NCBI GenBank assembly: GCA_023430885.1
Contig: JAEYYH010000026.1
Location: forward strand, 19,599-83,598
Direction: 5' to 3'
DNA: 64,000 nt
Source of the DNA: Bacillota bacterium
GTDB lineage: Bacteria; Bacillota_I; Bacilli_A; RF39; UBA660
In this document: in pieces, positions 1,383 to 63,704 of the stretch
Layout: every line of letters starts with the position of its first letter
Position numbering within the stretch: position 1 is the first letter of the stretch
Position numbers and translations under genes: made by a program
The notes under the pieces: generated by a model
What the model was told of the DNA's origin: nothing
The model's input: the letters and a program-made list of their open reading frames with translations, nothing else
The model's database searches: none

Positions 1383-1407
1383 AATTTAATATAAAATTTA
1401 CTAGACT

Positions 1408-4422: not shown

Positions 4423-4432
4423 GGAGGATATA

Positions 4433-5098: not shown

Positions 5099-5109
5099 GA
5101 GGTAAATAG

Positions 5110-8444: not shown

Positions 8445-9944
8445 ATGATGAAACCTATAGTATTGTGCATCTTAGATGGTGTGGGAATAAGAAAAGAAGA
8501 ACATGGAAATGCTTTTGCGCAAGCAGCAAAGCCAAATTTTGATTTTTTATGGAATAAATATCCACATAGTTTACTTGAAGCAAGTGGAGAATTAGTTGGA
8601 CTTCCTCATGGACAAATGGGTAATAGTGAGGTAGGACACATGAATATTGGAGCTGGAAGAATAGTATATCAGCCACTTCAATTAATAAATGAAAAAATAA
8701 AAAATGGTGATTTTTTTGATAATAAAGAATATATAGATGTAATGGACTATGTTAACGAAAGAGACTCGAAGTTACATATTTTTGGATTACTTAGTGATGG
8801 TGGAATACACTCACATATTAATCATTTATTTGCTATACTTGATATGGCTAAAAAAAATGGGATCAAAAAATTATATCTACATATGTTTTTAGATGGTAGA
8901 GATACTCTTCCAGATGTAGCAGAAACATACTTAGATAAACTTGCCAAAAAAATAGATGAAATTGATTTAGGAGTTATTGCAACTATATCAGGAAGATATT
9001 ATGCAATGGATAGAGATAATAGGTGGGATAGAGTTAGTTTAGCATATAATGCCATTGCTAATGCTGATGGTATCGAATACGATAATTATCACGATGCAAT
9101 AAAAGATAGCTATGCAAATAAAATTTATGATGAATTTGTTTTGCCTACTGTTCTTGATAAAAATGGAACAGTGGAAGAAAATGATGGAATGATTTTGTTT
9201 AATTATAGACCAGATAGAGGTAGAGAATTATTTAGTGCTTTCACTAATCCAAAATTTACTGGATTTGAGAGAAAATTTATTAAAAATTTGAAACTAGTTA
9301 CAATGATGCCACTTAGCAATGAAGTAATTAATACAACGGCATTTGATAATCAAAATTTAACAAACACTTTGGGGGAGTACTTGTCAGATAATAATAAAAA
9401 ACAATTAAGAATAGCTGAAACAGAAAAATATGCTCATGTAACATATTTCTTTGATGGAGGATTAGAAAAAGAATTATCTGGATGTGATAGAATTTTAATT
9501 CCATCACCAAAAGTTGCTACATATGATTTAGCCCCTGAAATGAGTGCTGTTCAAATAACAGACAAGTTAATTGAAGTAATTGATAATTATGATGTTGTTA
9601 TAGTTAATTATGCAAATGGTGATATGGTTGGTCATACAGGGGTAATACCTGCTGCCATCACAGCCATTGAGTGTGTAGATGAATGTTTGGGAAGATTATA
9701 CAAAAAGGTGGATGAGATTGGCGGAACTTTATTAGTAACTGCTGATCATGGTAATTGCGATTGGATGCTGGATGATAACAATAATGTTATAACAAGTCAT
9801 TCAACTAGTTTAGTGCCTTTTATTATTAATAGGGATGTGGAATTAAAAGATGGTAAACTTGCTGATATTGCACCAACTATTTTAAAGATTTTGGATCTTG
9901 AAATTCCAGAAGAGATGACAGGAAGTATTCTTATTAAGAATTGA
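8445..9944 (+). CDS. gpmI: 2,3-bisphosphoglycerate-independent phosphoglycerate mutase
   Basis: ILDGVGIR, GNSEVGHMNIGAGR, ADHGN motifs. About 500 aa, typical iPGM. Confidence 0.9.
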   Translation: MMKPIVLCILDGVGIRKEEHGNAFAQAAKPNFDFLWNKYPHSLLEASGELVGLPHGQMGNSEVGHMNIGAGRIVYQPLQLINEKIKNGDFFDNKEYIDVMDYVNERDSKLHIFGLLSDGGIHSHINHLFAILDMAKKNGIKKLYLHMFLDGRDTLPDVAETYLDKLAKKIDEIDLGVIATISGRYYAMDRDNRWDRVSLAYNAIANADGIEYDNYHDAIKDSYANKIYDEFVLPTVLDKNGTVEENDGMILFNYRPDRGRELFSAFTNPKFTGFERKFIKNLKLVTMMPLSNEVINTTAFDNQNLTNTLGEYLSDNNKKQLRIAETEKYAHVTYFFDGGLEKELSGCDRILIPSPKVATYDLAPEMSAVQITDKLIEVIDNYDVVIVNYANGDMVGHTGVIPAAITAIECVDECLGRLYKKVDEIGGTLLVTADHGNCDWMLDDNNNVITSHSTSLVPFIINRDVELKDGKLADIAPTILKILDLEIPEEMTGSILIKN

Positions 9945-9955
9945 GGAACTTAGTA

Positions 9956-11311
9956 ATGAAAGAAAAGAAAAAAACAAAAATAAAATTTAAGAAAATAAAT
10001 ATATTTATTGCTTTAAATATATTATTTTTGCTTGGATGTTGTGTATTTTACGGATCTAGATTAATTTATTATTATAAAGTTGAACACCCAAAAGTAAAAG
10101 CTAACGAAGATTTAGTAGATTTAGTAACGCTTAAAAAAAATATAACTACAGTAGGCTCTGGTTTATACAAAACTGATGACGGTTATGTATATAAGGGTGA
10201 TAAAGTAGCAAATTATGTGCAGTATTCAGGCAGATTATGGCGTGTTATATCAGTAGATAAAGATAATAATATAAAATTAATTACGGATGCTTCACAAACA
10301 TCACTGGTATGGGGAATCTCTACAGATTATAAAAATTCTTATGTTAGATCATGGTTAAATGATGAGAGTAATAATATTAAATCATTTTATGAAAGTTTAG
10401 CAGACACAAGTAACCTCGTAAAAACTAAAACTTGTATTGATGAAATTTCAGAAAATAGTATTACTTGTGACGATTATGTAGAAGATAATATAGGACTATT
10501 ATCTGCATATGAATATCAGCTTGCAGGTGGTGAAGATAGTTATTTAAACATTGAACAATATTGGTGGACTAGTAATATAAATGATAATGAAACTGCTTGG
10601 TATGTGTATTCTAAGGGAAGCTTAAATGACACATCATATTCAGGGACTATGTATTATAGCTATGGTGTAAGGCCAACAATAACTATTAAAGGAACATCAG
10701 AAGTTAAAAGTGGTGATGGTAGTAGTGAAAACCCATATAATTTGGATATTTCAACAACAAACATACTAAATAAAAAATATGTTGGTAACTATATAAATTA
10801 TAGTGATTATACATGGCGTATAATAGAAACAGATGATAACTATGTAAAAGTTGTTATGGATGGTGTTGTTAAGAAAGATAACAAGGATTATTATACATCT
10901 TTTGGAACAACAAATTATTATTCAGTAGATTCAAAAGTTGGTAATTATCTAAACAAAAACTTTTATAATAGTTTGGATAATAAAGAGTATATTTTAAAAT
11001 CCGACTTTTATGCTGGTAGATATGATTATTCAAATAAATATGATTTTAATAGTATAACTGAATATAATGAAACATTAAAAGTGGGCTTATTACAATTAGG
11101 GGAATTGTTCGTTACAGATGTTTCAAAATATTTCTTATCAACAAGAACCAAAACAACTGATAATAATATTTATCAAGTATTAGAAGATGGTCGAATATAT
11201 GCTGGTGATTTAACAGATGAGTTAATGCTAAGGCCAACTATATATTTAAAACCAGACTTAGCAATAAATTCAGGTAATGGTACACAGAAAGATCCATATA
11301 TAGTTGGGTAG
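9956..11311 (+). CDS. Membrane-anchored extracellular protein with two internally repeated ~200-aa halves (function unknown). Start ATG 9956 after RBS GAGGAAC; the track's 9941 start overlaps the gpmI stop
   Basis: N-terminal TM INIFIALNILFLLGCCVFYG. Repeats G.KVANYVQYSGRLWRVI / KKYVGNYINYSDYTWRII. Each half ends NPY.L / DPYIV. Confidence 0.45.
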   Translation: MKEKKKTKIKFKKINIFIALNILFLLGCCVFYGSRLIYYYKVEHPKVKANEDLVDLVTLKKNITTVGSGLYKTDDGYVYKGDKVANYVQYSGRLWRVISVDKDNNIKLITDASQTSLVWGISTDYKNSYVRSWLNDESNNIKSFYESLADTSNLVKTKTCIDEISENSITCDDYVEDNIGLLSAYEYQLAGGEDSYLNIEQYWWTSNINDNETAWYVYSKGSLNDTSYSGTMYYSYGVRPTITIKGTSEVKSGDGSSENPYNLDISTTNILNKKYVGNYINYSDYTWRIIETDDNYVKVVMDGVVKKDNKDYYTSFGTTNYYSVDSKVGNYLNKNFYNSLDNKEYILKSDFYAGRYDYSNKYDFNSITEYNETLKVGLLQLGELFVTDVSKYFLSTRTKTTDNNIYQVLEDGRIYAGDLTDELMLRPTIYLKPDLAINSGNGTQKDPYIVG

Positions 11312-11318
11312 GTGACAT

Positions 11319-12329
11319 ATGAAAAAAAGTATATTTATATTAGTGACAATAGATTTTATAGTGGCAATATGTTTCTTTTTGACATATGGACCAATTGGTT
11401 ATTTTAGAAATTTTTTAATAACCACTGCTATGACTACTATGGATCACAAATATTTAGCTAGAATTTTCTATTCAGAAGATACAATTAATCGAGTATTAAG
11501 TGAAAATACAATAGAAGGCTTTTCCACTGGAACGGATACCAAACAAATAAATATTGGTGGTAGTGATGAGGACAATAAATATGCATCTGCATATGAAAAA
11601 GAAATTCTTGATCATAAAAAAGGTGATGTTTATAAACTAATTGAGTTTGAATATAATGGATATGATGCATATTTAGTTGCAGTTTATGATCCTACTAGAA
11701 TAAGCCTAATACAAACAAATAAAATAGGAAGTTATGGTCAAACTTTACTTAATATGGCTAAAGATAATGATGCTTTAGTAGCTATAAATGCCGGAGGATT
11801 TGAAGATCCTAATGGTCAAGGCAATGGTGGAACTCCTATGGGAAGTGTTATAAAAAATGGCAAAGTAGTGTGGGGAAGTAGTAGTGCTCCTACTGCAATG
11901 GCAGGATTTACTGATAAAGGTATTTTATTACTTAGTTATGGTAGTCCAAGTGATGCAATAAAACAAGGAATGAAAGATGCAGTTCAATTTGGGCCATTCT
12001 TGATTGTTAATGGTGTATCAGCTACTATAAATGGTAATGGCGGATGGGGAATCAATCCTCGTACAGCTATTGCTCAAAGAAAAGATGGTATAGTATTATT
12101 TTTAGTTATAGATGGAAACGGTGCTAATAGGTATAATTGGAGTGGTCGTGGTGGCGCAACCTTAAATGATGTTATAGCAATATTTGAACGTTATGGTGCT
12201 TATAATGCTGTTAATATGGATGGTGGTGCTTCAACCAATTTAATTATAGAAAATAAATTATGGAATAATCCATGTGCTATTAGTTCAACAGGAGAAAGAG
12301 AACTTCCAAATGGCTGGATGGTAAAGTGA
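11319..12329 (+). CDS. Phosphodiester glycosidase family protein (DUF2233, NAGPA-like), N-terminal TM anchor
   Basis: AINAGGFEDPNG, PRTAIAQRKDGIVLFLVIDG and NAVNMDGGAS motifs characteristic of DUF2233. Confidence 0.6.
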   Translation: MKKSIFILVTIDFIVAICFFLTYGPIGYFRNFLITTAMTTMDHKYLARIFYSEDTINRVLSENTIEGFSTGTDTKQINIGGSDEDNKYASAYEKEILDHKKGDVYKLIEFEYNGYDAYLVAVYDPTRISLIQTNKIGSYGQTLLNMAKDNDALVAINAGGFEDPNGQGNGGTPMGSVIKNGKVVWGSSSAPTAMAGFTDKGILLLSYGSPSDAIKQGMKDAVQFGPFLIVNGVSATINGNGGWGINPRTAIAQRKDGIVLFLVIDGNGANRYNWSGRGGATLNDVIAIFERYGAYNAVNMDGGASTNLIIENKLWNNPCAISSTGERELPNGWMVK

Positions 12330-36068: not shown

Positions 36069-36113
36069 TTCTTTTTTAATTGATATAATTTATATATGAT
36101 AGGATGCGATAGT

Positions 36114-38729
36114 ATGAATAAAAAGAAAGGTTTTACATTGGTAGAAATACTGGCTGTTGTAATAATACTTGGGGTTATAAGTATTATTGTTTATCCAGTT
36201 CTTAATAAAGTCTTAAAAGATAATAGAAAAAGAGCATTTGAGGCTAGTCTAAATGCAGTAGTTAGAGCAGCTGAATTATATAAAACAGATAATAATAATG
36301 TTTTGGGTATATTTGATTACGATGACGAAAATATTGATATAAGTAATCTAGGTAAATGGCAAGCAGGAACTTTAACTGATTCTGTTGATACTGATGGAAA
36401 TACAAAAATATATCTTACGGGATTTTATGATGGTGAATTTTGTGCCACTGGTTATGAAGGTAACTTCACAATAATTGAAGGAAAGTGTGTGGAAACACCT
36501 GAATTATGTTTCATTATGAAAAATAACGAAATTATACAATATGAATTTGACTATAGTGCATGTCCAACGAATGTTAATATTCCTACTAGCATTGATGGTC
36601 AGGATGTTTTATATATAGGCGAAGGTGTTTTTGAAAGTTCACCTATAGCTTCTGTAATTATTCCTAATAGTATTAAAGAAATTAGAGATAATGCTTTTAA
36701 TGATAGTGCCTTGACATCACTTGATTTGACTAATGCTACATCTCTTCAAATAATTGGTTCTGGGGCATTTGAATATACACACTTAACTAATGTAGATTTT
36801 ACCAATCTTACAAGTTTAGTAGAAATAAAAGGTGCGGCTTTTGAATATTCTGGACTAACAGGAACTTTAGATTTAACAAACTCTACAAATTTAACAAGGA
36901 TATGGCCATATTCATTTGAAGAAAATCAAATATCTTCAGTTAAATTAAGTGGTTTAACTCATCTTGAAAGAATTGGAGAATATGCTTTTGAAGAAAATAA
37001 TATAACAGGAGTTTTAGAATTAACAAACATGCCAGCATTAGTATCATTAGATGATGGTGCTTTTAGCAATAATAATATAACAAGTATTAATCTAACAAGC
37101 ACTAATGTTCTAGAAAGCATTGGTCAAAATGCTTTTGCATATAATGATATTACTAATATTAATGTAGATACAATTAATAATATAATGTGGTTAGGAGCAT
37201 ATGCTTTTGCATATAATGATTTAACTAGTTTCAGTTTAACGTTATTTCCAAATATCGATTATGTTTCAGCTGGTGTAGTTAATAATAATCAGCTATCTAA
37301 TAGTGAAGCCTTCATATATAATGTAGTTAATGGAACAATAGAGCCTAGTATTTTGATATCATACGGTGGTGCAAGTAGAAGTAATATTGTAATACCTAGC
37401 ACTGTAGTATCAATAGGTGAGAATACTTTTTATAGTCAGGGTATAACAAGTGTTGACTTTAGTCAGGCTACTGGATTAACAAATATTGATTATTATGCAT
37501 TCGCTTCCAATAATTTAACTACAATAACATTACCTAGTACGTTAATAGAAATAGGTCAATATGCATTTTCTGAAAATCAACTAGTTAGTATTACTATTCC
37601 AGAAAATACAACAACAATAGATGATTATGCATTTTACTCTAACAGATTAACTTCTGTAACATTACCCAGCACATTATTAGGAATAGGACAATATGCATTT
37701 GCTTACAATCAATTAGCTAATATTACTATTCCAGGTAATACAACAACAATAGAAAACTATGCATTTAAAAGTAATGCTACTTGGCAAACAATAACAATCT
37801 TATCTAATGGGGTAAATAGTACATTGAGATTTAATTATGTTTGGGCTGATATTGGTTGGCCAATGGAAAAAATTCCTACTGTAGAAGTATTATCAACTCT
37901 TTCTACAGCAGCCCAAAATAATTTTGATTTTCAAAATTTTACATATTATAAAGTTGCTGTACCAACAAGTGGGCAATACAAATTTGAGGTATGGGGAGCC
38001 CAAGGAGGTTGTAACAGTGGTGGCAAAGGTGGATATTCTACCGGCTTAGTACAATTAAATAGTGGAGATACCTTATATGTTTATGTTGGTGGTAAAGGTT
38101 TGTGTTCAAGCGAAACTAGTTCTAGTCTAATGGGGGGATTTAATGGTGGCGGATTTGCTTATAAAAATAGTTATACCGCTGGTTCTGGAGGCGGTGCTAC
38201 CGACATAAGAGTAACAACTAATTCATTATATGCCCGTGTGATTGTTGCCGGTGGCGGCGGTGGTTATAGTTCTGTTGGCGGTTATACTGGCGGTTTTGGT
38301 GGAGGTTTAGTAGGTGGTTCAACATATAACAATGCTACATTTTCAGCTGGTGGTGGAACTCAAATAAATGGTGGGGTAAATGGCTGTTATTCTAATGGAA
38401 ATGGTAAATTTGGATTTGGTGGTTCATACGGTTCTGCTTGTGGTTCACTTTGGGGATATCCAATTTCTGGTGGTGGATCAGGTTGGTATGGTGGTGGAAG
38501 CACCAGCATAAGTGCCGGCGGTGGTTCTGGTTGGATTTACACATCAACAGACTTTACAAATTGGCAATCAGGAAATGCAACAGATGCAGCACAATGGTTA
38601 TTAAATAGTTCATATTATTTATTAAGTGCACAAACAATTGCGGGTAATCTTGCAATTACTAATCCAGATGGTAGCAGTGTTACAGGTCATGCAGGTAATG
38701 GTTACGCCAGAATAACATTTATAGCTTAA
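36114..38729 (+). CDS. Modular type IV pilin: prepilin leader plus pilin domain, BspA-type leucine-rich repeats, C-terminal Gly-rich domain
   Basis: MNKKKG|FTLVEIL class III signal. Pilin D-region FCATGYEGNFTIIEGKC. More than 15 LRR_5-like repeats (L..IG..AF....LT.I). C-terminal 250 aa is Gly-rich and ends GNGYARITFIA. Confidence 0.65.
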   Translation: MNKKKGFTLVEILAVVIILGVISIIVYPVLNKVLKDNRKRAFEASLNAVVRAAELYKTDNNNVLGIFDYDDENIDISNLGKWQAGTLTDSVDTDGNTKIYLTGFYDGEFCATGYEGNFTIIEGKCVETPELCFIMKNNEIIQYEFDYSACPTNVNIPTSIDGQDVLYIGEGVFESSPIASVIIPNSIKEIRDNAFNDSALTSLDLTNATSLQIIGSGAFEYTHLTNVDFTNLTSLVEIKGAAFEYSGLTGTLDLTNSTNLTRIWPYSFEENQISSVKLSGLTHLERIGEYAFEENNITGVLELTNMPALVSLDDGAFSNNNITSINLTSTNVLESIGQNAFAYNDITNINVDTINNIMWLGAYAFAYNDLTSFSLTLFPNIDYVSAGVVNNNQLSNSEAFIYNVVNGTIEPSILISYGGASRSNIVIPSTVVSIGENTFYSQGITSVDFSQATGLTNIDYYAFASNNLTTITLPSTLIEIGQYAFSENQLVSITIPENTTTIDDYAFYSNRLTSVTLPSTLLGIGQYAFAYNQLANITIPGNTTTIENYAFKSNATWQTITILSNGVNSTLRFNYVWADIGWPMEKIPTVEVLSTLSTAAQNNFDFQNFTYYKVAVPTSGQYKFEVWGAQGGCNSGGKGGYSTGLVQLNSGDTLYVYVGGKGLCSSETSSSLMGGFNGGGFAYKNSYTAGSGGGATDIRVTTNSLYARVIVAGGGGGYSSVGGYTGGFGGGLVGGSTYNNATFSAGGGTQINGGVNGCYSNGNGKFGFGGSYGSACGSLWGYPISGGGSGWYGGGSTSISAGGGSGWIYTSTDFTNWQSGNATDAAQWLLNSSYYLLSAQTIAGNLAITNPDGSSVTGHAGNGYARITFIA

Positions 38730-46160: not shown

Positions 46161-46559
46161 ATGAAAATAATTAATAAAGAGTCAGTAACTTACAAAAAAG
46201 GTTTTACGCTAATAGAATTAATTGCTGTAATTTTATTAATAGGCATAATTTCATTAATAACAGTGCCAACAGTATCAAATATAATACAAGAATCAAAAGA
46301 AAAAGCTTTTAAAGCACAAGCAATATATATATTTGAAGCTACGATGATATATTTATATGATAATGATTATGCTGATATACCATCAGAGGGACTTGATGTC
46401 ACTATAATAAATAGTATAGATCCAAATCCTTTTATAACCGGATATGTATTTAGAAATGCCAGTGGTAAATTTGAAATCGCTTATGTAAGTGATGGAAATT
46501 ATTGTGCAAATGGTGAAAAAAATAATTTAGTAATAACAAGAGGAACTTGTGATGTATAA
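46161..46559 (+). CDS. Minimal type IV (pseudo)pilin with prepilin cleavage/methylation signal
   Basis: YKKG|FTLIELIAVILLIGIISLITVP. D-region DGNYCANGEKNNLVITRGTC. Confidence 0.7.
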   Translation: MKIINKESVTYKKGFTLIELIAVILLIGIISLITVPTVSNIIQESKEKAFKAQAIYIFEATMIYLYDNDYADIPSEGLDVTIINSIDPNPFITGYVFRNASGKFEIAYVSDGNYCANGEKNNLVITRGTCDV

Positions 46560-46827: not shown

Positions 46828-47487
46828 ATGTATAAAATTTGTTTAGTAGAAGATGAAATCAATTTAAATAACCTTATTAAGAATTATTTAGAACATGAAA
46901 ATTATGAAGTAGTCCAAAAGTTTAGTGGAAATGAAGCTATAAATTATGTAGGGACAGAAAATATTGATCTATGGATTCTTGATATAATGCTTGGCGATGA
47001 TATAAGTGGTTATGATATAATCAAAAAAATAAGAGAAAAATCTCCTTTAGTTCCTGTGATATTTACATCAGCACGTGATCAAGATTTAGATAAAATAATT
47101 GGTCTAGAACTTGGAAGTGATGATTATGTTACAAAACCATATTCTCCTAAAGAGTTAGTTCTTAGAGTAAATAAGTTAATTGGTAGAGTTTATAATAAGG
47201 TTGAAGAAAAACTTAGATATGAAAATTATGAAATAGATGCTACAAAAAGAGAAGTCGTTGCTAGCGGCAAAGAAGTAAAATTAACAACACTTGAATTTGA
47301 TTTATTGATGTTATTTATTAACAACAAAAACAAATCTTTTAGTAGAGAAGAAGTATTAACCAGTGTATGGGGGACAGATTATTTTGGAAGTGATAGGGTA
47401 GTTGATGACTTAGTAAGAAGACTAAGAAAAAAAATGCCTAATATGCGTATAAATACTTTGTATGGATATGGATATAGATTATCATGA
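46828..47487 (+). CDS. OmpR-family response regulator
   Basis: Receiver Asp in ILDIMLGD. Winged-helix C-terminus LTTLEFDLL...GYGYRL. Confidence 0.85.
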   Translation: MYKICLVEDEINLNNLIKNYLEHENYEVVQKFSGNEAINYVGTENIDLWILDIMLGDDISGYDIIKKIREKSPLVPVIFTSARDQDLDKIIGLELGSDDYVTKPYSPKELVLRVNKLIGRVYNKVEEKLRYENYEIDATKREVVASGKEVKLTTLEFDLLMLFINNKNKSFSREEVLTSVWGTDYFGSDRVVDDLVRRLRKKMPNMRINTLYGYGYRLS

Positions 47488-48749
47488 TAAAAAAATTCAA
47501 TTTGTCTAAACAATTACTATGTATAGTAATTGTAATATTTGGAGTAATAACTGTTGCAATAGGATATTTACTTCCTAAAGTATTACTACCAGTTTATGAA
47601 AGTAATATATATACAATTTTAAAGCAACCATTAGAATTTATGAACGATACTAACTTTGACGATTATGAATTTAATTCAGATATCGCTTATTTATATATAA
47701 CAAACGAAGGAAAAGTAATAGAGTCAACAAACTTAATCAATGTTATTAAAATATCTACTGAACAATTAATTAAAAGAATAGATAGTCAGTCTGGTAACTT
47801 TACTTATCTAGGCAGTAAATATTACTATATTGCTGAAACAGATAATTATGTTACAAAGATAGCTATAACTAATGATAATTATATAATAACAATAAAAGAG
47901 GAAATAATTGACACCATATTTCCTATACTACTCTTCACGCTATTAATAATAGTTGGACTTGTGTTATTGTGGTCTCAACTATTAATAAAAAAAATTGAAC
48001 GACTAAAAGAAAAAATAGATAATTTAGATAATGATAATTATACAGACAGGTTTAATTACTATTTCGATGATGAACTTAAATCTTTATCAATATCCATCGA
48101 TGATATGAAAGATACCCTAAAAGAACAAGAAGAATATAAAAATCAAATGTATCAAAATATATCGCATGATTTTAAAACACCACTTACTGTAATAAAATCA
48201 TATATAGAAGGTATGGAAGATGGTATTCAAGATAAAGATGAAGGTGCTAGAATCATCAGCGAACAGGTAAACAAATTAGAATTAAAAGTACACTCCTTAC
48301 TATATTTAAATAAATTAAATTATATAAAAGATTTAGACAATTATAAACATGAAACTACAGATGTCTCTCGGGTTATAACAGAATCTGTAGAAAAGTTTAA
48401 AATACAAAGGCCAGATGTTGAATGGGAAGTTAATATCATTGATAAAAAAAGTGATTTTAAAGGAACTTTTGATATGTGGGAAGCTATTATTGATAATTTA
48501 CTAAATAATTTTGTTCGCTATGCCGAAAAAAATATAAAAATAATTATTAAAAACAATAAAATAACCTTATATAACGATGGACCTAACATCGACCCTAATA
48601 TACTAAACGATATTTTTACTCCGTATAAAAAAGGTATAAAAGGACAATTTGGTTTGGGCTTATCAATAGTAAAGAAAACTATAATGCTTTTTGGTTATGA
48701 AATAACCGTTCATAACGAAAAGAAAGGAATTAGTTTTATAATTAAATAA
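47484..48749 (+). CDS. Sensor histidine kinase with ~120-aa extracytoplasmic sensor domain
   Basis: Two TM segments. H-box ISHDFKTPLT. HATPase N/G boxes (LLNNFVRYA, GLGLSIVK). Confidence 0.85.
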   Translation: MIKKFNLSKQLLCIVIVIFGVITVAIGYLLPKVLLPVYESNIYTILKQPLEFMNDTNFDDYEFNSDIAYLYITNEGKVIESTNLINVIKISTEQLIKRIDSQSGNFTYLGSKYYYIAETDNYVTKIAITNDNYIITIKEEIIDTIFPILLFTLLIIVGLVLLWSQLLIKKIERLKEKIDNLDNDNYTDRFNYYFDDELKSLSISIDDMKDTLKEQEEYKNQMYQNISHDFKTPLTVIKSYIEGMEDGIQDKDEGARIISEQVNKLELKVHSLLYLNKLNYIKDLDNYKHETTDVSRVITESVEKFKIQRPDVEWEVNIIDKKSDFKGTFDMWEAIIDNLLNNFVRYAEKNIKIIIKNNKITLYNDGPNIDPNILNDIFTPYKKGIKGQFGLGLSIVKKTIMLFGYEITVHNEKKGISFIIK

Positions 48750-48808: not shown

Positions 48809-49291
48809 ATGCAAAAGTTAGATTTAAATAAAAAAAAATATGAAGTAGAAATACCTAAAGAAGAAGTTACAAAAAAGAAACCCGTATTGTATAACGTTAT
48901 TTTGATTATCGTTTTAGTTACTCTTATTTGTTTGTTTACATTTTTATTTAAAAAATATACAAACAAAGAGGCTTTAGCTACTCTTGAAAGTAGAGTTAAC
49001 ATGACTATAAATTTAGCACGTGAGGTAGTAGATGATGAAAGTTATACAGAAGATTATCTGTTAATAAAGTTCCCTGATACTGAAGAAATTATTACTAAAG
49101 ATGGGAAAATGAATTTTAATAATAAAGAATTAGAAGAATTTTCAAATGGCTATATTATTGTTTATAAAGATAGTTCAATAGCTTTTAAGCTAAGTGATGG
49201 TGAATACTGTGCTTCTAAATCATATAATGATGCGTCATATAAGTTATTTATATTTGGTAATTGTTCTAATTATGACGTTGAATATAAATAG
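48809..49291 (+). CDS. Membrane-anchored pilin-domain-like protein (no prepilin signal), paralog 1
   Basis: Cytoplasmic K-rich N-terminus, one TM. C-terminal DGEYCASKSYNDASYKLFIFGNC matches the pilin D-region pattern of the 46161 protein. Confidence 0.5.
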   Translation: MQKLDLNKKKYEVEIPKEEVTKKKPVLYNVILIIVLVTLICLFTFLFKKYTNKEALATLESRVNMTINLAREVVDDESYTEDYLLIKFPDTEEIITKDGKMNFNNKELEEFSNGYIIVYKDSSIAFKLSDGEYCASKSYNDASYKLFIFGNCSNYDVEYK

Positions 49292-49305: not shown

Positions 49306-49797
49306 ATGAAAACACACGAAACAACAATTCATGTTTATGATTATGGAAAGAAAAAGCGCAAACATCATAATGCAAAACTAAAAATATCAAATATCTTAAA
49401 AATAGTATTACCGTTACTAGTACTTATATTTGCAGCATTTTGTATATATAAATATTCTAATAAAGATAAAATTAAAGAAATAGATAAAAAAATTGCTATG
49501 TCAATTGAATTAATGCAAAATGTTGTAAAAGATAAAAGCTTTGATGGCGATTATTTATTAGTAACATTTCCAGATAATTCAAAAGTTGTATCAAACGACG
49601 GTTATATAATTAATAATATAGGTTCTTCATATAAAGAGTTTGATGCAGGTTACATTATATTATATAAAGATGGAACATATAAATTCGAATTACAAGATAC
49701 TGGATATTGTGCTACAAAAGATATTTATGATAAAAAATATCAGTTATTGATATTTAAAAAATGTTCAAGTAAAGAAGTTGATTACTTAAAAAAATAA
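49306..49797 (+). CDS. Membrane-anchored pilin-domain-like protein, paralog 2 (tandem duplicate)
   Basis: Same architecture. DTGYCATKDIYDKKYQLLIFKKC. Shares LL(I/V)(K/T)FPD and GYII(V/L)YKD with paralog 1. Confidence 0.5.
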   Translation: MKTHETTIHVYDYGKKKRKHHNAKLKISNILKIVLPLLVLIFAAFCIYKYSNKDKIKEIDKKIAMSIELMQNVVKDKSFDGDYLLVTFPDNSKVVSNDGYIINNIGSSYKEFDAGYIILYKDGTYKFELQDTGYCATKDIYDKKYQLLIFKKCSSKEVDYLKK

Positions 49798-58450: not shown

Positions 58451-59506
58451 ATGATAGAAAGATTAGAAAATATTGAAAAAAAATATAATGAGCTTAATGA
58501 AGAAGTAATGAAACCCGAAACTATTTCTAATATTAAAAGAACATTAGAAATAACAAAAGAACAATCTTTATTAAGAGAAGCATATGAGGCATATCAAGAG
58601 TATAAAAAAATATTAAATGAAATAGAAGAAGCTAAGGAACTTGTTAAAGATCCAGAACTTGGAGAATTTGCTAAAGAAGAACTTAGTGAACTTGAAACAA
58701 AAAAATCTTCTATGGAAAGTGAATTTGAAATTCTTTTACTTCCTAAAGATCCTAATGATGCTAAAAATATTATTATGGAAATAAGAGGCGCAGCAGGTGG
58801 AGATGAAGGTAATATCTTTGCTGGCGATTTATATCGCATGTATACAAGATATGCTGAAAAACAAGGATGGAAATATGAAACACTTTCTGAAATAGAAGGC
58901 GAAGCAGGTGGATATTCTTTAATAGAGTTTTTAATTAAGGGAGATAGTGTATATTCAAAACTTAAGTATGAATCAGGAGCTCATAGAGTTCAAAGAGTGC
59001 CTGAAACAGAATCACAAGGTAGAGTACATACTTCTACAGCAACGGTTTTAGTAATGCCAGAAGCTGAGGAAGTAGATTATGAACTTGATATGAGTGAAGT
59101 TAGAATAGATATAACAAGAAGTAGTGGTTGCGGTGGTCAAGGTGTTAATACTACTGATTCAGCTGTTAGACTTACACATTTACCAACTGGAATAACAGTA
59201 TATTCTCAACAAGAAAGATCTCAAATTAAGAATAAAGAAAGAGCAATCAAGATACTTCAAACAAGACTATTTGATTTTAAAACTCAACAAAGAGAACAAG
59301 AATTAGGTACAGAAAGAAGAAGTAAAATAGGTACAGGTGATCGTTCTGAAAAGATAAGAACATACAATTATCCTCAAAACCGTGTTACAGATCATAGAAT
59401 TGGATTTACATTAAAACAATTAGATAGAGTTATGGAAGGAGAGCTTGATGAAATTATTGAGGCCCTAATAACTGAAGATCAAGCACGCAAACTTCGTGGA
59501 GAATAA
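58451..59506 (+). CDS. prfA: Peptide chain release factor 1
   Basis: PET tripeptide context (QRVPETESQGR) and GGQ motif (SGCGGQGVNTTDSAVR). Confidence 0.93.
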   Translation: MIERLENIEKKYNELNEEVMKPETISNIKRTLEITKEQSLLREAYEAYQEYKKILNEIEEAKELVKDPELGEFAKEELSELETKKSSMESEFEILLLPKDPNDAKNIIMEIRGAAGGDEGNIFAGDLYRMYTRYAEKQGWKYETLSEIEGEAGGYSLIEFLIKGDSVYSKLKYESGAHRVQRVPETESQGRVHTSTATVLVMPEAEEVDYELDMSEVRIDITRSSGCGGQGVNTTDSAVRLTHLPTGITVYSQQERSQIKNKERAIKILQTRLFDFKTQQREQELGTERRSKIGTGDRSEKIRTYNYPQNRVTDHRIGFTLKQLDRVMEGELDEIIEALITEDQARKLRGE

Positions 59507-60272
59507 TTTAATTGAATATGGAGTTTCTAAACTAAGAGAAAATAATATTGATACTCAGTTGGCATATTATTTATACAAATATTTAAATAATTTAGATGTT
59601 TATAAAGAATCAATAGATAAACTTATAAAGGGAATACCAGTTCAGTACATAGTCGGGAATGTTGATTTTTATGGACTTATATTTAATGTCAATGAAAATG
59701 TTTTAATCCCACGTTTTGAAACAGAAGAATTAGTTGAAAAATCAATTAAATATATAAATAATTTTTTTGGTAATAAAGTTGATATAGTTGATATTGGAAC
59801 AGGAAGTGGATGCATTGCCATTTCACTTAAAAAACATCTGTTATGTAATATGGATGCAGTAGATATTTCAACTAAAGCTTTAGAAGTAGCAAGGGGAAAT
59901 GCTAAGAAACTAAATGCTGATATAAATTTCTATAATGGTGATTTATTAACTCCTTTAAATAAAAGATATGATGTAATAATAAGCAATCCTCCATATATTT
60001 CAAAAAATGAAGAGATAATGGATTTGGTCAAAAAGAATGAGCCCAATATAGCTTTATATGCTGATAATGAAGGTCTTAAAAATTATGAAGATATCTTAAA
60101 AAATGCTTCTAATCACTTAAATAATAAAAATATGATTATTTTTGAAATAGGGGAAACACAAGGTGTTAAAATAAAGGAAATGACACTAGATTATTTTCCT
60201 GAATCAACTGTGAAAATTGAAAAAGATATGCAAGGAAGAGATAGATTTATATTCATTTTTAATGAATCATAA
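59496..60272 (+). CDS. prmC: Release factor glutamine N5-methyltransferase (HemK/PrmC), GTG start overlapping the prfA stop
   Basis: VDIGTGSGCIAI SAM motif and NPPY catalytic motif. Confidence 0.85.
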   Translation: MENNLIEYGVSKLRENNIDTQLAYYLYKYLNNLDVYKESIDKLIKGIPVQYIVGNVDFYGLIFNVNENVLIPRFETEELVEKSIKYINNFFGNKVDIVDIGTGSGCIAISLKKHLLCNMDAVDISTKALEVARGNAKKLNADINFYNGDLLTPLNKRYDVIISNPPYISKNEEIMDLVKKNEPNIALYADNEGLKNYEDILKNASNHLNNKNMIIFEIGETQGVKIKEMTLDYFPESTVKIEKDMQGRDRFIFIFNES

Positions 60273-60320
60273 ATCTTTTTTTTTGCTTTATATTATGCTA
60301 TACTTATAATAGGTGATAGT

Positions 60321-62369
60321 ATGAAAAATAAAAAAGGATTCACGCTTGTAGAGTTAATTGCAATAATAATTGTTATTGGAATAATTATTGGAATTATAGC
60401 GCCTACTGCAATTAAACTTATAGAGAAATCCAAGGTTAATTCTTTTAGAGAAGGTTTAAGAAGTATAATACGATCAGCGGAAATTTATATGGAAGAAAAT
60501 GATTTGAAAACTCTTCCAGAAGATGGAATATATTTACAAGATAACGATCTTGATATTGATTATGCGGATGGTTATAGTGGAATAATAAAATATATAAATG
60601 GAGAAATTGTATTACAAAATATAGGTAACGGGACATATTGTGGTAGTGGCAGTAAAGATACTTTATCTGTATCTGGTTTTACTGAAGATTGTGTAGTGGT
60701 CAAACCTGAGCCTCAGTGCTACTTGATGGGAACCACTGATACTACAGGTGATACTATCATTGGGTACGATTATGAAAAAGAAGATTGTAGTTCTATGGAA
60801 TTATCAATTCCAGCGACAGTTAATGAAGTGCCTGTTAAATATATTGCAGATGGAGCATTTTTAGATTCTTATGAATATGTACTTGGTGTAGGTTACTATG
60901 ACACTACTCCATTAGGTGGTCCAGGTCTTTTTCCAGTAATTGAACTTTTAGATAATTTATCTTATATGGGTGTGACTCCTTTTGAAACAATCTATATGAA
61001 TACTCTTCCGCAAATGCCAAAATTCTGTCTTACAACTTCTATGGAAGAAGCAACGGTTCCAATAAATTATATGATGTCATCAGGTGGATACGTTTTTTGC
61101 AATTTTGAAATGTATGATGATCTTTCTTCTTATCAAGCACATGGTATTGGTATAACAAAAGTAGATTTTAGTAATGCAACTAATTTGGTTAAAATTGGTA
61201 ATTCAGCTTTTTCTTATAATTTTATAACAGGGGCAATGGATTTAAGTGGTGCCACTAAATTAACAGAAATAGCTTCAAATGCCTTTGGTTATAATCAAAT
61301 AGAATCTATAAAGTTACCTAGTAGTCTTGTTACAATAGGAAGTTCTGCTTTTGTAGGTAATCAAATACAAACAATATCAATACCTTCTTCAGTTACAACA
61401 ATTGGCGATTATGCTTTTGAAGATAATAATTGGAATAGCGTTACTATTGGATCAAACTCAACTAATAAAGAAGATAGATTTAATGATAGTTGGGAAGTTA
61501 TCGGCTGGCCTTTGGAAATAATGCCAGAAGAATCTATTTCTGATCCTATTGATTATACATTAACGACGTCAACAAACACATTTGATTATATAAAAGGTTA
61601 TTATATTGTAAATGTTCAAACAAGTGGTAATTATAAATTAGAAGTTTGGGGCGGTTCCGGTTCAAATGGTGCTTCAAATGATCCTTCTGCATATGCATAT
61701 CCAAGTTATAGCGGTGGCTATACATCAGGTACAGTATATCTTTCTGCAGGAACAAAAATATATGTATACGTTGGTGGCGCAGGAAATGATATAAAAGGTG
61801 GATATAATGGAGGTGGAAACTCCATTTCACCAGATGGCGATTGTGAAGACAATGGCGCTGGCGGTGGCGCTACTGACATAAGATTAGTTGGTGGAGATTG
61901 GAATGCTCAATCAAGTTTATTGTCAAGGATTATTGTGGCTGGCGGTGGCGGCGGCGGTAGAGTAACCGCGCCATCTACAAATGCTGGTACTGAAATAGGA
62001 TTGGCTGGATCACAAACACAATCTGGAGTGGCAACGGATACTGAAAATTCTTGGAATGATAGTATAACTTGCGATATTGCTGGAGGTTTTGGTTTTGGTG
62101 GCTCAGAAAATTCGTCAGATGATAATCCCGGCGGTGGCGGAGGCTGGTATGGTGGATGTTCAGGCTATGATGCTATGGGTGGTGGTGGTTCTAACTACGC
62201 ACTTACTAGCGAATCAGTAAAACCATCAGGATATACCCCAACTAGTACTTACTATTTGTCTAACATTGTATCAACAGCTGGTAATGCTTCAATGCCAACT
62301 TATGATGGTCTTAGTACAATGACTGGAAATATAGGCAATGGCTATGCCAAAATAACTTATATTGGATAA
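60321..62369 (+). CDS. Modular type IV pilin paralog: prepilin leader plus pilin domain, short LRR block, C-terminal Gly-rich domain
   Basis: MKNKKG|FTLVELIAIIIVIGI. D-region GNGTYCGSGSKDTLSVSGFTEDC. LRR_5-type repeats. Gly-rich C-terminus with GGGATDIRL, RIIVAGGGGGG, ending GNGYAKITYIG. Confidence 0.65.
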   Translation: MKNKKGFTLVELIAIIIVIGIIIGIIAPTAIKLIEKSKVNSFREGLRSIIRSAEIYMEENDLKTLPEDGIYLQDNDLDIDYADGYSGIIKYINGEIVLQNIGNGTYCGSGSKDTLSVSGFTEDCVVVKPEPQCYLMGTTDTTGDTIIGYDYEKEDCSSMELSIPATVNEVPVKYIADGAFLDSYEYVLGVGYYDTTPLGGPGLFPVIELLDNLSYMGVTPFETIYMNTLPQMPKFCLTTSMEEATVPINYMMSSGGYVFCNFEMYDDLSSYQAHGIGITKVDFSNATNLVKIGNSAFSYNFITGAMDLSGATKLTEIASNAFGYNQIESIKLPSSLVTIGSSAFVGNQIQTISIPSSVTTIGDYAFEDNNWNSVTIGSNSTNKEDRFNDSWEVIGWPLEIMPEESISDPIDYTLTTSTNTFDYIKGYYIVNVQTSGNYKLEVWGGSGSNGASNDPSAYAYPSYSGGYTSGTVYLSAGTKIYVYVGGAGNDIKGGYNGGGNSISPDGDCEDNGAGGGATDIRLVGGDWNAQSSLLSRIIVAGGGGGGRVTAPSTNAGTEIGLAGSQTQSGVATDTENSWNDSITCDIAGGFGFGGSENSSDDNPGGGGGWYGGCSGYDAMGGGGSNYALTSESVKPSGYTPTSTYYLSNIVSTAGNASMPTYDGLSTMTGNIGNGYAKITYIG

Positions 62370-62375
62370 CATTAA

Positions 62376-62401
62376 AATAAAGGATCAAACTCCTTTATTT
62401 T
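62376..62401 (+). terminator. Rho-independent terminator (AAAGGATCAAACTCCTTT plus T-run)
   Basis: Hairpin plus T-run. Confidence 0.5.
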
Positions 62402-62440
62402 TTTTAATTATTATAGTAAAATAACCTATAGGTGATGAAT

Positions 62441-63085
62441 ATGTTTGATAAAGTATTAAATTTAGTAAAAACTAGAAATTTAGTAGTTCCTGGAACTATA
62501 TTTTTTCATTTAAATGAATTAGGAATTAGTTATGAGGAATTATATATTCTAACATATGTTATTAATCTTGATAATTTAGAATTTGATATGGTTAAAATGT
62601 CTAAAGAACTAAACATGAAACCCAAAGAACTTTTGGTCGTAGTTAATTCTTTAGTTGAAAAAGATTACTTAAAACTAGATGTAATTAAAAATGAATGTAA
62701 TGCGGGCGAATATTTTAACTTAGATGGAATATATCGAAAATTAGCTTTTAATATAATTGGAAAAGAAGAAGAAAAGATTACTATACCAGCTACTTTATAT
62801 GATGAATTTGAACAAGACTTTAAAAGACCATTAACTCCTATGGAATTTCAAATAATAGATGCATGGAAAGAAGTAGGATACTCTTCTGAACTTATTATAT
62901 TAGCTTTAAAAGAGGCTACTTATAATGGGGCTTATAGTGTGACATATATTGATAAAGTATTGAGTGCTTGGGATAAAAAGGGGATAAGAACTGCTGCAGA
63001 TGTTGAAAAAAACAAACAAGAATTTAAGAAAAATAAAACAGTTCCCGCTGAATTAGAAGAAGAGTATGATTGGTTAAATGAATAA
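62441..63085 (+). CDS. DnaD-domain replication initiation / membrane attachment protein (DnaD/DnaB-like)
   Basis: Winged-helix N-terminus and C-terminal DnaD-like domain (YNGAYSVTYIDKVLSAWDKKGI). dnaD-nth adjacency as in B. subtilis. Confidence 0.65.
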   Translation: MFDKVLNLVKTRNLVVPGTIFFHLNELGISYEELYILTYVINLDNLEFDMVKMSKELNMKPKELLVVVNSLVEKDYLKLDVIKNECNAGEYFNLDGIYRKLAFNIIGKEEEKITIPATLYDEFEQDFKRPLTPMEFQIIDAWKEVGYSSELIILALKEATYNGAYSVTYIDKVLSAWDKKGIRTAADVEKNKQEFKKNKTVPAELEEEYDWLNE

Positions 63086-63704
63086 AGAAAGAATATTTAA
63101 TTATTTAGATGAATTAATTACAAATCCGATTTGCGAGTTAGACTTTACTAAAGATTATGAACTTTTGATTGCAGTAATGCTTAGTGCACAAACAACAGAT
63201 AAAAGAGTTAATATGGTTACTAAAGTTTTATTTGACGAGTACCAATCACTTGAAGAATTAAGCAAAGCAAATATTGAAGATGTTAAAAAAATTATTAAAT
63301 CACTTGGAACTTATTCTAAAAAAGCTTCTAATGTAGTTATAATATCTAATAGATTACTTAACGATAGTAATGGAGTAGTACCTAATGATCGTGATTTTTT
63401 AGAAAGTTTACCAGGAGTAGGCAGAAAGACAACTAATGTAGTTCTAGGCATCCTTTATAATGTTCCGTGTATTGCTGTTGATACACACGTAGCTAGAGTA
63501 GCAGTAAGACTTGGTTTTGCTAAAGAAGGAGACTCTGTTTATACTATTGAGCAAAAGCTAACAAAAAAAATACCAAAAGATAATATGATAAGAATTCATC
63601 ATCAACTTTTATTATTTGGTAGATATTATTGTAAAGCAATTAAACCAGAATGCCAAACATGTAAATTATATGATATATGTAAAGAAAAAAGGAAATCATT
63701 TTGA
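63078..63704 (+). CDS. nth: Endonuclease III
   Basis: HhH-GPD (LPGVGRKTTNVVL), catalytic Lys/Asp, C-terminal 4Fe-4S cluster C-x6-C-x2-C-x5-C. Confidence 0.88.
   Translation: MNKERIFNYLDELITNPICELDFTKDYELLIAVMLSAQTTDKRVNMVTKVLFDEYQSLEELSKANIEDVKKIIKSLGTYSKKASNVVIISNRLLNDSNGVVPNDRDFLESLPGVGRKTTNVVLGILYNVPCIAVDTHVARVAVRLGFAKEGDSVYTIEQKLTKKIPKDNMIRIHHQLLLFGRYYCKAIKPECQTCKLYDICKEKRKSF

Follow-up and report, generated by a model that had tools for sequence, protein, structure and literature searches.

Prepilins carry a signal in which a short basic leader that ends in glycine precedes a phenylalanine or methionine at +1, a glutamate at +5, and a hydrophobic stretch of about 20 residues. The pilin fold has a long N-terminal helix (alpha1) that packs against an antiparallel beta-sheet, and a disulfide loop is often present at the C terminus. 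It is thought that these simple filaments gain many functions through modular pilins, and few of the modules (vWA and lectin) have been tested.

In Streptococcus sanguinis, the modular pilins are PilB, which has a vWA module, and PilC, which has a lectin module (Raynaud et al. 2021, PMC8179133; Shahin et al. 2023, PMC9934059). PilB is an example of a modular pilin that serves as an adhesin at the tip (PMC8179133). Dataset S1 of PMC8179133 includes 18+6 proteins that combine IPR012902 with IPR026906 (LRR_5) and 2+1 proteins that combine IPR012902 with PF12810.

We analyzed a stretch of 64 kb ("the window") from an uncultured gut lineage of Bacilli, which is low in GC (29%) and endospore-forming. 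The window encodes a protein of 682 amino acids (60321..62369, + strand) that is a modular pilin in the sense of Raynaud et al. 2021: it joins a pilin module to domains that are not confined to pili. Like the modular pilins of S. sanguinis, it has a class III signal, then a small pilin module, a short linker, and bulky non-pilus domains; its host is also monoderm, and its predicted role is that of a tip-exposed adhesin. Unlike the modular pilins in the dataset of PMC8179133, it has leucine-rich repeats (LRR_5) followed by a glycine-rich domain in one subunit. Also, the S. sanguinis proteins are encoded in a pil locus, while this gene and its paralog at 36 kb are orphan single genes amid housekeeping genes. 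Pilins with only LRR_5 and pilins with only PF12810 are catalogued, and LRR_5 plus PF12810 on one pilin is an uncatalogued combination within a known class.

The glycine-rich domain belongs to the same family (PF12810) as those of ALK, LTK, and SCD-2 of Caenorhabditis elegans (7lrz, 7ls0, 7nx1, 7lir). In those proteins, it is an extracellular ligand-binding module located distally in a protein that is tethered to the membrane; we liken the pilin's domain to it, and we predict that the pilin's domain binds a target as well. Unlike ALK and LTK, the domain that we describe is from a bacterium and is attached to a pilin, with neither a receptor kinase nor an EGF-like part. In addition, the loops between its glycine motifs are different and variable, and nothing suggests that it has an ALKAL-like cytokine ligand.

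A TNF-like plus glycine-rich domain is also found at the fibre's distal end in cyanophage Pam3 (gp24; 7ypx, PMC9608196) and mycobacteriophage Bxb1 (gp33; 9d93). The Pam3 protein has a conserved glycine-rich stem and variable distal loops, and it was proposed to recognize the host receptor (PMC9608196). The carrier is different, as the 682-residue protein has a pilin helix where Pam3 and Bxb1 have a phage shaft. Also, the fibre of Pam3 is trimeric and requires a chaperone, whereas nothing indicates that the pilin is a trimer.

Finally, the repeats are of the same LRR_5 type as in BspA-like surface proteins (the solved Bacteroides structures 4fdw, 4gt6, and 4fd0, and the adhesin HupY/LrrG). Unlike in BspA-like proteins, the repeats are borne by a pilin and are followed by the glycine-rich domain. 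The 682-residue protein is not an ortholog of HupY/LrrG because its score for that family (40.6 bits) is far below the NCBIfam cut-off (1250).

Modules of the 682-residue protein

The preliminary description of this DNA gave the coding sequence as 60321..62369, which agrees with the list of open reading frames, and the identical protein sequence is recorded in NCBI, ENA, and Logan assemblies. Three Pfam domains (N_methyl, LRR_5, and ALK_LTK_GRD) score above their gathering cut-offs, and all 14 aligned homologs keep the tri-modular architecture. The full-length AlphaFold2 (AF2) model was of moderate quality (pLDDT of 65.6), with values below 50 for residues 184-273 and 550-621. All of the modules below are on the + strand.

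First, the pilin module (residues 1-125, 60321..60695) is supported by N_methyl, the AF2 model, and the alignment of homologs. It consists of the leader MKNKKG, Glu11 (+5), a hydrophobic alpha1, a small beta-sheet head, and a loop between Cys107 and Cys124. The N terminus, MKNKKG followed by FTLVELIAIIIVIGIIIGIIAP, has the features of a prepilin signal, and from the sequence, cleavage is predicted before Phe7 (after Gly6). The score for N_methyl was 24.1 bits (cut-off 21.2). The score for TIGR02532 was below the NCBIfam cut-off (13.3 versus 16.3 bits), while the paralog at 36 kb passes it with 26.7 bits. Across the 14 homologs, positions K5 to E11 are nearly invariant (at least 90% conserved), and the pair of Cys107 and Cys124 is conserved. 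In the AF2 model, this module appears to have the pilin fold, with a helix at 9-59 and strands at 86-92, 95-102, 106-111, and 116-119 (pLDDT of about 60-80). Residues 1-60 match solved pilins in a sequence search of the PDB (E values from 1.6e-4 to 0.07). The module is also 31-35% identical to a pilin of 132 amino acids that begins at 46161, across the full length of the shorter protein.

Second, the leucine-rich block begins with an N-terminal cap and first repeat (residues 126-182, 60696..60866), which we recognized by columns that are invariant in the alignment of homologs (C133, I146, Y149, C156, I163, P164, I175, and F180). This is followed by an insert (residues 183-276, 60867..61148) that lacks Pfam domains and varies more among strains than any other segment: 36% of its sites vary across 8 alleles. 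The insert is just 18-38% identical to its orthologs, has the highest dN/dS of any segment (0.27), and has a pLDDT below 50 in the AF2 model. The BspA-type repeats proper (residues 277-385, 61149..61475) were modeled with a pLDDT of about 90. LRR_5 (PF13306) matches residues 278-382 with 63.3 bits (cut-off 27.7; E = 2.7e-17), and the sequence matches in the PDB are 4fdw, 4gt6, and 4fd0 (E values from 4e-14 to 2e-11).

Third, the C-terminal part (residues 386-682, 61476..62366) is the ALK/LTK-type glycine-rich domain, which includes a conserved lead-in (RFN..W..IGWP). PF12810 (ALK_LTK_GRD) matches residues 435-681 with 130.8 bits (cut-off 24.5; E = 1e-37) and covers positions 7-243 of the 243 in the profile. 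Because the full-length model was only moderate, the domain was modeled again by itself with a deeper alignment, and it has the fold of ALK, that is, a TNF-like sandwich and a glycine-rich region. ALK was found when the PDB was searched with a profile of 33 glycine-rich domains; a search with the single sequence matched LRR proteins and pilins and did not find ALK. The bacterial family is large, with about 22,000 sequence clusters, and gut phages encode proteins with up to 36% identity to the domain described here. In the genomes that we sampled, a prepilin signal is present in only about one-tenth of the proteins with PF12810, so the domain is not confined to pili.

Genetic setting and proposed role

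Both of the large pilin genes lie as single-gene units amid housekeeping genes and are apparently monocistronic. Upstream of the 682-residue protein's gene, an AT-rich hairpin with a run of nine T's (60235..60284, + strand; -14.6 kcal/mol, z = -4.96 relative to 200 shuffles) overlaps the end of prmC, whose stop codon is at 60270-60272. This terminator-like hairpin sets the pilin gene apart from the unit of prfA and prmC. Next is a putative promoter and ribosome-binding region (60283..60316, + strand), which we read from the sequence: TTGCTT (60283-60288), a spacer of 16 nt, TATAAT (60305-60310), and the Shine-Dalgarno sequence AGGTGA (60311-60316), which is 4 nt before the ATG. A consensus scan did not list this candidate promoter because its -35 element matches at just 3 of 6 positions. 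Just past the stop codon is another AT-rich, terminator-like hairpin (62374..62405, + strand), with a stem of 11 bp and a run of eight T's (-9.6 kcal/mol, z = -4.19); none of 200 shuffled sequences folded as well.

The preliminary description reported strong terminators around both genes. RNA folding did find AT-rich hairpins with runs of six to nine T's on both sides of each gene, with energies of -9.6 to -14.6 kcal/mol and z scores of -2.3 to -5.0 relative to shuffled sequences. However, "strong" was an overstatement, as a consensus terminator scan of the flanks of both genes called none; that scan requires at least three G-C pairs and misses AT-rich hairpins.

The window also encodes a conventional prepilin of 132 amino acids without any add-on module (46161..46559, + strand). 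Its scores for N_methyl (26.3 bits) and TIGR02532 (29.9 bits) are both above the cut-offs, and the pilin modules of both large proteins are its homologs. From its sequence, this short prepilin is a candidate for the filament-forming subunit. Two neighboring proteins (48809..49291 and 49306..49797) have a pilin-like head and a plain transmembrane anchor and lack the G-F-x-x-x-E motif, so this lineage tolerates non-cleavable versions.

Overall, we think that the 682-residue protein is probably a tri-modular type IV pilin-type subunit that serves as a tip-displayed pilus adhesin. Prepilin peptidase would cut after Gly6, and the pilin module would dock the protein into a type IV filament made of a short pilin. 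The tip would be the most likely position in the filament because the protein is bulky. The leucine-rich repeats and the glycine-rich domain would then be held off the cell as binding modules; the glycine-rich motifs may form a rigid scaffold, with specificity determined by the variable loops and by region 183-434. We infer the cleavage, the location at the tip, and the binding by analogy. The preliminary description had already called these proteins tip-adhesin-like, and this fits with the concept of modular pilins (PMC8179133) and with the use of the same fold at the tips of phage tail fibres (PMC9608196).

We also considered whether the protein might be a surface adhesin that never enters a filament. 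Its prepilin-like N terminus would be an export signal and anchor or, after cleavage, would form a very short pseudopilus that spans the wall, and the leucine-rich and glycine-rich domains would be displayed directly on the surface of the cell. The 64-kb window does not encode a prepilin peptidase, an assembly ATPase, or a platform protein. A search for the T2SSE ATPase with four ATPase queries gave no match on any contig of the window's lineage, and in motif and BLAST screens of all of the loci that we fetched, lineages other than this one were the only source of pilus machinery. The pilin genes are scattered singly, two of the neighboring pilin-like proteins are non-cleavable, and most proteins with the glycine-rich domain are not pilins, all of which would be expected of a surface adhesin. 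On the other hand, K5 to E11, including Gly-1, Phe+1, and Glu+5, are nearly invariant in orthologs that are otherwise just 37-57% identical, which is hard to explain without processing and packing into a filament. Also, the same window encodes a short conventional pilin that might form the body of a filament, and in other lineages of Bacilli, pilins that bear the domain adjoin a complete set of assembly genes. In four other uncultured Bacilli/Tenericutes genomes, genes for pilins with the glycine-rich domain are directly adjacent to the T2SSE ATPase, and in two of these four, they are also beside T2SSF and an A24 prepilin peptidase; the adjacency to the ATPase recurs in one further lineage. 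The pilins beside these ATPases are of a different class from the window's pilins, and BLAST found no match between the two sets at E = 1e-4. We consider a surface adhesin outside of any filament to be rather unlikely. If the genome does lack pilus machinery, then prepilin signals would have been reused for plain surface anchoring.

A role in DNA uptake or secretion instead of adhesion, as a minor subunit of a Com pseudopilus or one like that of type II secretion, seems unlikely. The N-terminal 40-60 residues have weak matches to the NCBIfam models for GspG, ComGC, ComGD, and ComGF, and JGI labels one ortholog (P0005) as "type II secretory pathway pseudopilin PulG." In addition, Com pili are given as the most common type IV filament of monoderm bacteria (PMC12153270). 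However, these matches are confined to the generic N-terminal helix and are far below the cut-offs (29.5 versus 88.85 bits for GspG, 17.1 versus 75 for ComGC, 14 versus 70 for ComGD, and 12.9 versus 80 for ComGF). The gene is not in the context of a comG-type operon, and the matched Com and Gsp models do not include the extension of 560 or 750 amino acids, with leucine-rich repeats and a glycine-rich domain, that the two large proteins have.

Diversity among strains and probable recombination

Syntenic orthologs in related genomes exist for both paralogs, with a separate set for each. For instance, an ortholog of the 36-kb paralog (P0015) has the same arrangement, with the pilin gene between cca and dusB. 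When we scanned one genome per species, in a set that lacked the window's species, the best match to the 682-residue protein was at 44%. In a close relative (L084), the flanking housekeeping genes are 84-100% identical to those in the window and the pilin module is 90% identical, versus just 41-45% for the linker, the leucine-rich part, and the glycine-rich part. Similarly, in a set of eight strain alleles, variable sites make up 3-8% of the pilin module and 25-36% of residues 183-434. The add-on modules occur as discrete allele classes that are about 90% identical to each other. The preliminary description proposed a survey of the leucine-rich and glycine-rich parts for variability across strains, and in these comparisons, both the pilin module and the flanking genes diverge much more slowly than the add-on modules.

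When close strains are compared, dN/dS amounts to 0.16 overall, with 0.05-0.27 in the individual segments, and the dS of the pilin gene is raised by about 12-fold over that of RF1. The combination of low dN/dS and high dS suggests that divergent alleles were imported by recombination. Positive selection was rejected as the source of the variability, as dN/dS was 0.05-0.27 in every segment. An origin from a prophage or mobile element was also rejected: the locus is syntenic, amid housekeeping genes, in several species. The GC content of the pilin gene is 35%, compared to 29% for the window, which may reflect its many glycine codons.

If the protein is a pilus adhesin, then each of the two paralogs would have a specificity of its own, and diversity in the population would arise mainly by the import of divergent alleles through recombination, with the fold under purifying selection. 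Alternative specificities for the two paralogs had been suggested in the preliminary description. The paralogs are old (27-36% identical), have their own syntenic orthologs, and have fast-diverging add-on modules, which makes alternative specificities plausible.

More speculatively, the ALK-type glycine-rich domain might serve uncultured gut Bacilli as a head for receptor recognition that can be exchanged and that is carried on type IV filaments, which would be a cellular counterpart of the tips of phage tail fibres. Strains would swap alleles and modules with each other, and perhaps with phages, through recombination, and the pilins with both leucine-rich repeats and the glycine-rich domain would be two fixed "tip cartridges." We consider this idea to be less likely than not. 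It would give the bacterial family of glycine-rich domains its first functional setting, and it would provide a prokaryotic model for target recognition by the ligand-binding fold of ALK. The gene places two uncharacterized modules on a single pilin. We did not find any functional study of PF12810 or of bacterial homologs of ALK's glycine-rich region in the literature, and the only studied relatives within the family are the human receptors ALK and LTK and the phage tail-fibre tip. If the protein is located in the pilus and binds a target, then this family of bacterial domains would have a function, an adhesion system would have been identified in abundant but uncultured gut Bacilli, and a pool of recognition domains that is shared by phages and their hosts would become testable.

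It is very unlikely that the two paralogs form a system for antigenic or phase variation, with one expressed at a time. They do share a design and have separate promoter regions, and the variability among strains is strong and falls into discrete allele classes. However, we searched for repeats at both promoters and within both genes, and we found no invertible-promoter repeats, silent cassettes, or long homopolymer tracts. The only inverted repeats that bracket either promoter are the terminator hairpins and a single weak, AT-rich pair (26 nt, 73% complementary). The longest runs of A at the start of the 682-residue protein's gene are 5-6 nt. The two loci have no DNA repeats in common, the paralogs' proteins are 27-36% identical, and both loci are stably syntenic across species. 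The dN/dS of 0.16 and the rise of about 12-fold in dS also point to import by recombination rather than to switching in place. Since we found neither an invertible promoter nor a silent cassette, the antigenic variation that was suggested in the preliminary description is unsupported.

Comparison of the two paralogs

The paralog (36114..38729, + strand; identified from Pfam and BLASTP) has 871 amino acids in the same three parts, and all three of the Pfam domains are above their cut-offs in it as well. The view of the two genes as paralogs with a pilin, LRR, and glycine-rich architecture was thus correct, and we can add that the repeats are BspA-type and that the glycine-rich part is the PF12810 domain. 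The 682-residue protein does have the shorter LRR block, with one LRR_5 stretch (278-382), versus four in the far longer block of the paralog. By domain, the two proteins are 38% identical in alpha1, 19% in the pilin head, 40% in the leucine-rich repeats, and 41-53% in the glycine-rich domain. With BLASTP and adjustment for composition, the 682-residue protein is 36% identical to its paralog over 277-540 (E = 2e-38) and 27% identical over 1-378 (E = 8e-30). The pairwise alignment and domain-by-domain comparison that had been proposed for these proteins show collinear similarity and not similarity of composition alone.

The glycine-rich C termini are homologous, as was claimed: EVWG, GGGATDIR, R[IV]IVAGGGGG, and GNGYA[KR]IT[YF]I occur in the same order in both. 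Glycine is abundant in both C termini, and we considered whether they are alike only in composition. This was refuted, and we give it almost no credence, as the BLASTP hit (E = 2e-38) persists despite the adjustment for composition, both paralogs match PF12810 over its full length, and across 33 aligned domains the order of the motifs is kept, non-glycine residues such as V154 and A155 are invariant, and others such as Y53 and W58 are nearly so.

Other claimed identities hold in part. The N termini were said to share KKG/FTLVELIA (with the slash at the predicted cleavage site). They have the core KKG/FTLVE in common, but the next three residues differ: the 682-residue protein has MKNKKG/FTLVELIA and the 36-kb gene encodes MNKKKG/FTLVEILA. 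The D-regions were described as the same. Both pilin heads do end in a Cys...Cys loop, but the loop sequences differ, with YCGSGSKDTLSVSGFTEDC in the 682-residue protein and FCATGYEGNFTIIEGKC in its paralog. The start contexts had been stated to be identical, but they differ; they are GGTGATAGTATGAA for the gene at 60 kb and TGCGATAGTATGAA for the gene at 36 kb, which share only GATAGTATGAA (11 nt). For the 36-kb gene, the mechanical ORF call begins at 36096, and the start on record is 36114 (MNKKKGF).

Two homologous genes for modular pilin-type proteins

The gene at 60321..62369 (+) encodes, as the preliminary description stated, a 682-aa protein, and three Pfam domains lie above their gathering cut-offs: N_methyl (residues 1-26), the BspA-type leucine-rich repeat LRR_5 (residues 278-382), and ALK_LTK_GRD (PF12810; residues 435-681, E 1.1e-37, with the whole profile covered). 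The N-terminus consists of the leader MKNKKG, then FTLVE, and then a hydrophobic helix. Across 14 aligned homologs, K5 to E11 hardly vary; elsewhere these homologs are 33-57% identical, except for one allele at 90%. The full-length AF2 model has moderate confidence (pLDDT 65.6); it packs a helix (9-59) on a four-stranded sheet (86-119) and includes a confident LRR solenoid (280-390).

The window also encodes a conventional prepilin of 132 aa (46161..46559, +; KKG|FTLIELIA), which is an orphan gene. Its whole length aligns with the pilin module of each large gene, and it ends just past the Cys...Cys loop, so residues 1-125 of the large proteins make up a complete pilin. The short prepilin could be the filament-forming subunit. 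Its gene is just upstream of genes for an OmpR-type response regulator (46828..47487) and a histidine kinase (47484..48749). Tandem paralogs at 48809..49291 and 49306..49797 (+; 160 and 163 aa) carry a transmembrane anchor at the N-terminus and lack the G-F-x-x-x-E cleavage motif, and no credible Pfam match was found for either. Toward the C-terminus, both are similar to the pilin head and share its Cys...Cys loop (for the 160-aa protein, BLASTP against the short pilin gives E 4e-4); they appear to be degenerate pilin-like proteins that cannot be cleaved.

The other large gene, at 36114..38729 (+), shares this three-domain layout, and its LRR_5 matches form four stretches. Read from the MNKKKGF start, as in public gene calls, its product is 871 aa long; the mechanical open reading frame begins at 36096. 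BLASTP with composition-adjusted statistics showed that the two proteins are collinear: residues 277-540 match 443-712 of the paralog (36% identity, E 2e-38), and residues 1-378 also match it (27% identity, E 8e-30). Every motif that the preliminary description had listed as shared is present in both, in the same order. The similarity is true homology, and the original observation was essentially right. Two details fared less well. The supposedly identical start contexts, GGTGATAGTATGAA and TGCGATAGTATGAA, have just 11 nt in common. Also, the flanking terminators are not strong: a consensus scan found none around either gene, and what does lie on both sides of both genes is AT-rich hairpins, each with a T6-T9 run after it (folding energies from -9.6 to -14.6 kcal/mol; z-scores from -2.3 to -5.0). 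Because of these hairpins and T runs, both paralogs look like single-gene units.

Modular pilins were defined by Raynaud et al. (PMC8179133), whose work established PilB of S. sanguinis as a pilus adhesin. In Dataset S1 of that study, IPR012902 occurs together with IPR026906 (LRR_5) in 18 and 6 proteins and together with PF12810 in 2 and 1, but no architecture there has LRR_5 and PF12810 in one pilin. This pair on one subunit was previously uncatalogued; all three domains occur together in at least eleven cluster representatives here. Both sequence and predicted fold identified the 682-aa protein as a type IV pilin and a modular pilin, with LRR_5 and PF12810, and it is best described as a predicted modular type IV pilin-type subunit. 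Equivalog tests did not identify it as a Com or Gsp pseudopilin.

Conserved positions and divergent alleles

The window (29% GC) encodes PolC, Ddl, and SpoIVA, and a class A PBP is encoded in the downstream flank of L001, an identical contig; thus, the host, from an uncultured lineage of Bacilli, is walled and endospore-forming. Its own species is absent from the representative genomes. The 682-aa protein's gene lies between prfA-prmC and dnaD-nth, and orthologs are at exactly the same position in four loci from related genomes (L082, L083, L084, and L089). The paralog is flanked by cca and dusB, as is its ortholog P0015. P0021 (874 aa), a more distant homolog that shares this architecture, has mraY on one side and a Band_7 gene on the other, and a further orphan pilin is close by. 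The pilin genes found in these genomes are scattered single genes.

At these conserved positions, the proteins diverge. Relative to L084, the flanking proteins are 84-100% identical (RF1, the prfA product, 96%; DnaD 91%; Nth 88%) and the pilin module is 90% identical, versus 41-45% for the add-on parts (linker, LRR, and glycine-rich domain, or GRD). Relative to L082, the corresponding values are 64-98% and 70%, with 47-62% for the linker and LRR and about 50% for the GRD in the alignment of homologs (A1). For the paralog relative to locus L088, flanking proteins are mostly 67-94% identical (RDD 46%), alpha1 67%, the head 53%, and the whole protein 41%. At 90% identity, the cluster that includes the 682-aa protein has eight alleles in at least three classes, which are about 90% identical to each other; 3-8% of sites vary in the pilin module versus 25-36% in residues 183-434.

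For the window versus L089, dS is 0.023 for RF1, 0.048 for PrmC, 0.29 for the pilin gene, and 0.20 for nth, while dN/dS for the pilin gene is 0.16 (at most 0.27 in every segment). This jump in dS with low dN/dS indicates that a recombination tract brought in a divergent allele, which is under purifying selection; it does not point to rapid positive selection in place. Across 58451..63704, synonymous divergence from L089 leaps after prfA and prmC (0.02-0.05), and the tract appears to start near the 5' part of the pilin gene. The suggestion that the paralogs provide antigenic variation is unsupported: we found no invertible-promoter repeats, silent cassettes, or slippage tracts, and the 682-aa protein did not qualify as a phase-variation system. 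The LRR block of the paralog contains 72-75-nt repeats and a 132-nt tandem duplication of two LRR units (37478..37741, +; 78% identity), so its repeat number grows by duplication.

At its start, the window is within a conjugation-type gene set (3..7929, +) that encodes a TraG/AAA_10 P-loop ATPase, a 1004-aa SpoIID and CHAP protein, and a type IV secretion coupling protein (T4SS-DNA_transf). At 9941..11311 (+), a gene adjoins one for a phosphodiester glycosidase (NAGPA; 11319..12329); its own 456-aa product has a membrane segment at the N-terminus and a DUF6273 domain.

Pilus machinery and the likely role

No prepilin peptidase, T2SSE assembly ATPase, or T2SSF platform protein is encoded in the 64-kb window, and a search with ATPase sequences gave no match on a contig of this lineage. 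In other uncultured gut Bacilli and Tenericutes, L040 (3393..10816) encodes T2SSF, an A24 prepilin peptidase, and T2SSE (confirmed by Pfam), followed by two genes that each combine a prepilin-type N-terminus with a GRD. L031, L043, and L068 have the same kind of ATPase with two adjoining pilin genes, one with a GRD; L031 has T2SSF and the peptidase as well. In another lineage, a 557-aa GRD protein is beside the ATPase (L090/L091), and the equivalent pilin in L092/L093 lacks the GRD. Thus, the GRD has repeatedly been grafted onto genuine pilus subunits. Across these genomes, the T2SSE ATPase gene is divergent to the two pilin genes, the second pilin has or lacks the GRD depending on lineage, and T2SSF and the peptidase are neighbours in some of the genomes but lie at other sites in the rest. 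In these small genomes, the genes for the pilus are often spread out.

The ATPase-adjacent pilins are of a different class from the window's, so this adjacency supports a pilus role by association and does not prove it. By analogy with known modular pilins, the 682-aa protein is probably a pilus-tip adhesin, which is the most likely reading; the main rival is that the pilin-like part serves for plain surface anchoring.

The glycine-rich domain

A profile of 33 GRDs matched just three kinds of solved structures below E 1e-4: ALK, LTK, and nematode SCD-2 (E 2e-9 to 3e-5). Modeled alone, the GRD is confident (pLDDT 83.3, pTM 0.85), and in structural comparison it scored 9.6 against the Pam3 cyanophage tail fibre and 9.5 against a Bxb1 mycobacteriophage tail-tip protein; Foldseek concurs. 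The distal part of the Pam3 fibre, which was proposed to recognise the receptor, is a TNF-like plus glycine-rich domain whose glycine motifs are conserved and whose distal loops vary (PMC9608196). Among predicted viral structures, 107 match at E <= 0.001, and the best are gut siphovirus proteins (33-36% identical).

The bacterial family has 21,861 representative clusters at E <= 0.001, and many members are giant proteins with up to 11 domain copies. A prepilin signal is present in only about 5-10% of sampled members, and our literature search found no functional study of any bacterial member. The value of the present case is that it ties this large ALK-like family to both pili and phage receptor-binding tips. 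In Prevotellaceae and Segatella genomes (L020, L056, L057, and L063), 5-8 short genes (about 220-620 aa) lie side by side and encode one GRD each, and these Bacteroidota arrays are a different deployment of the domain.
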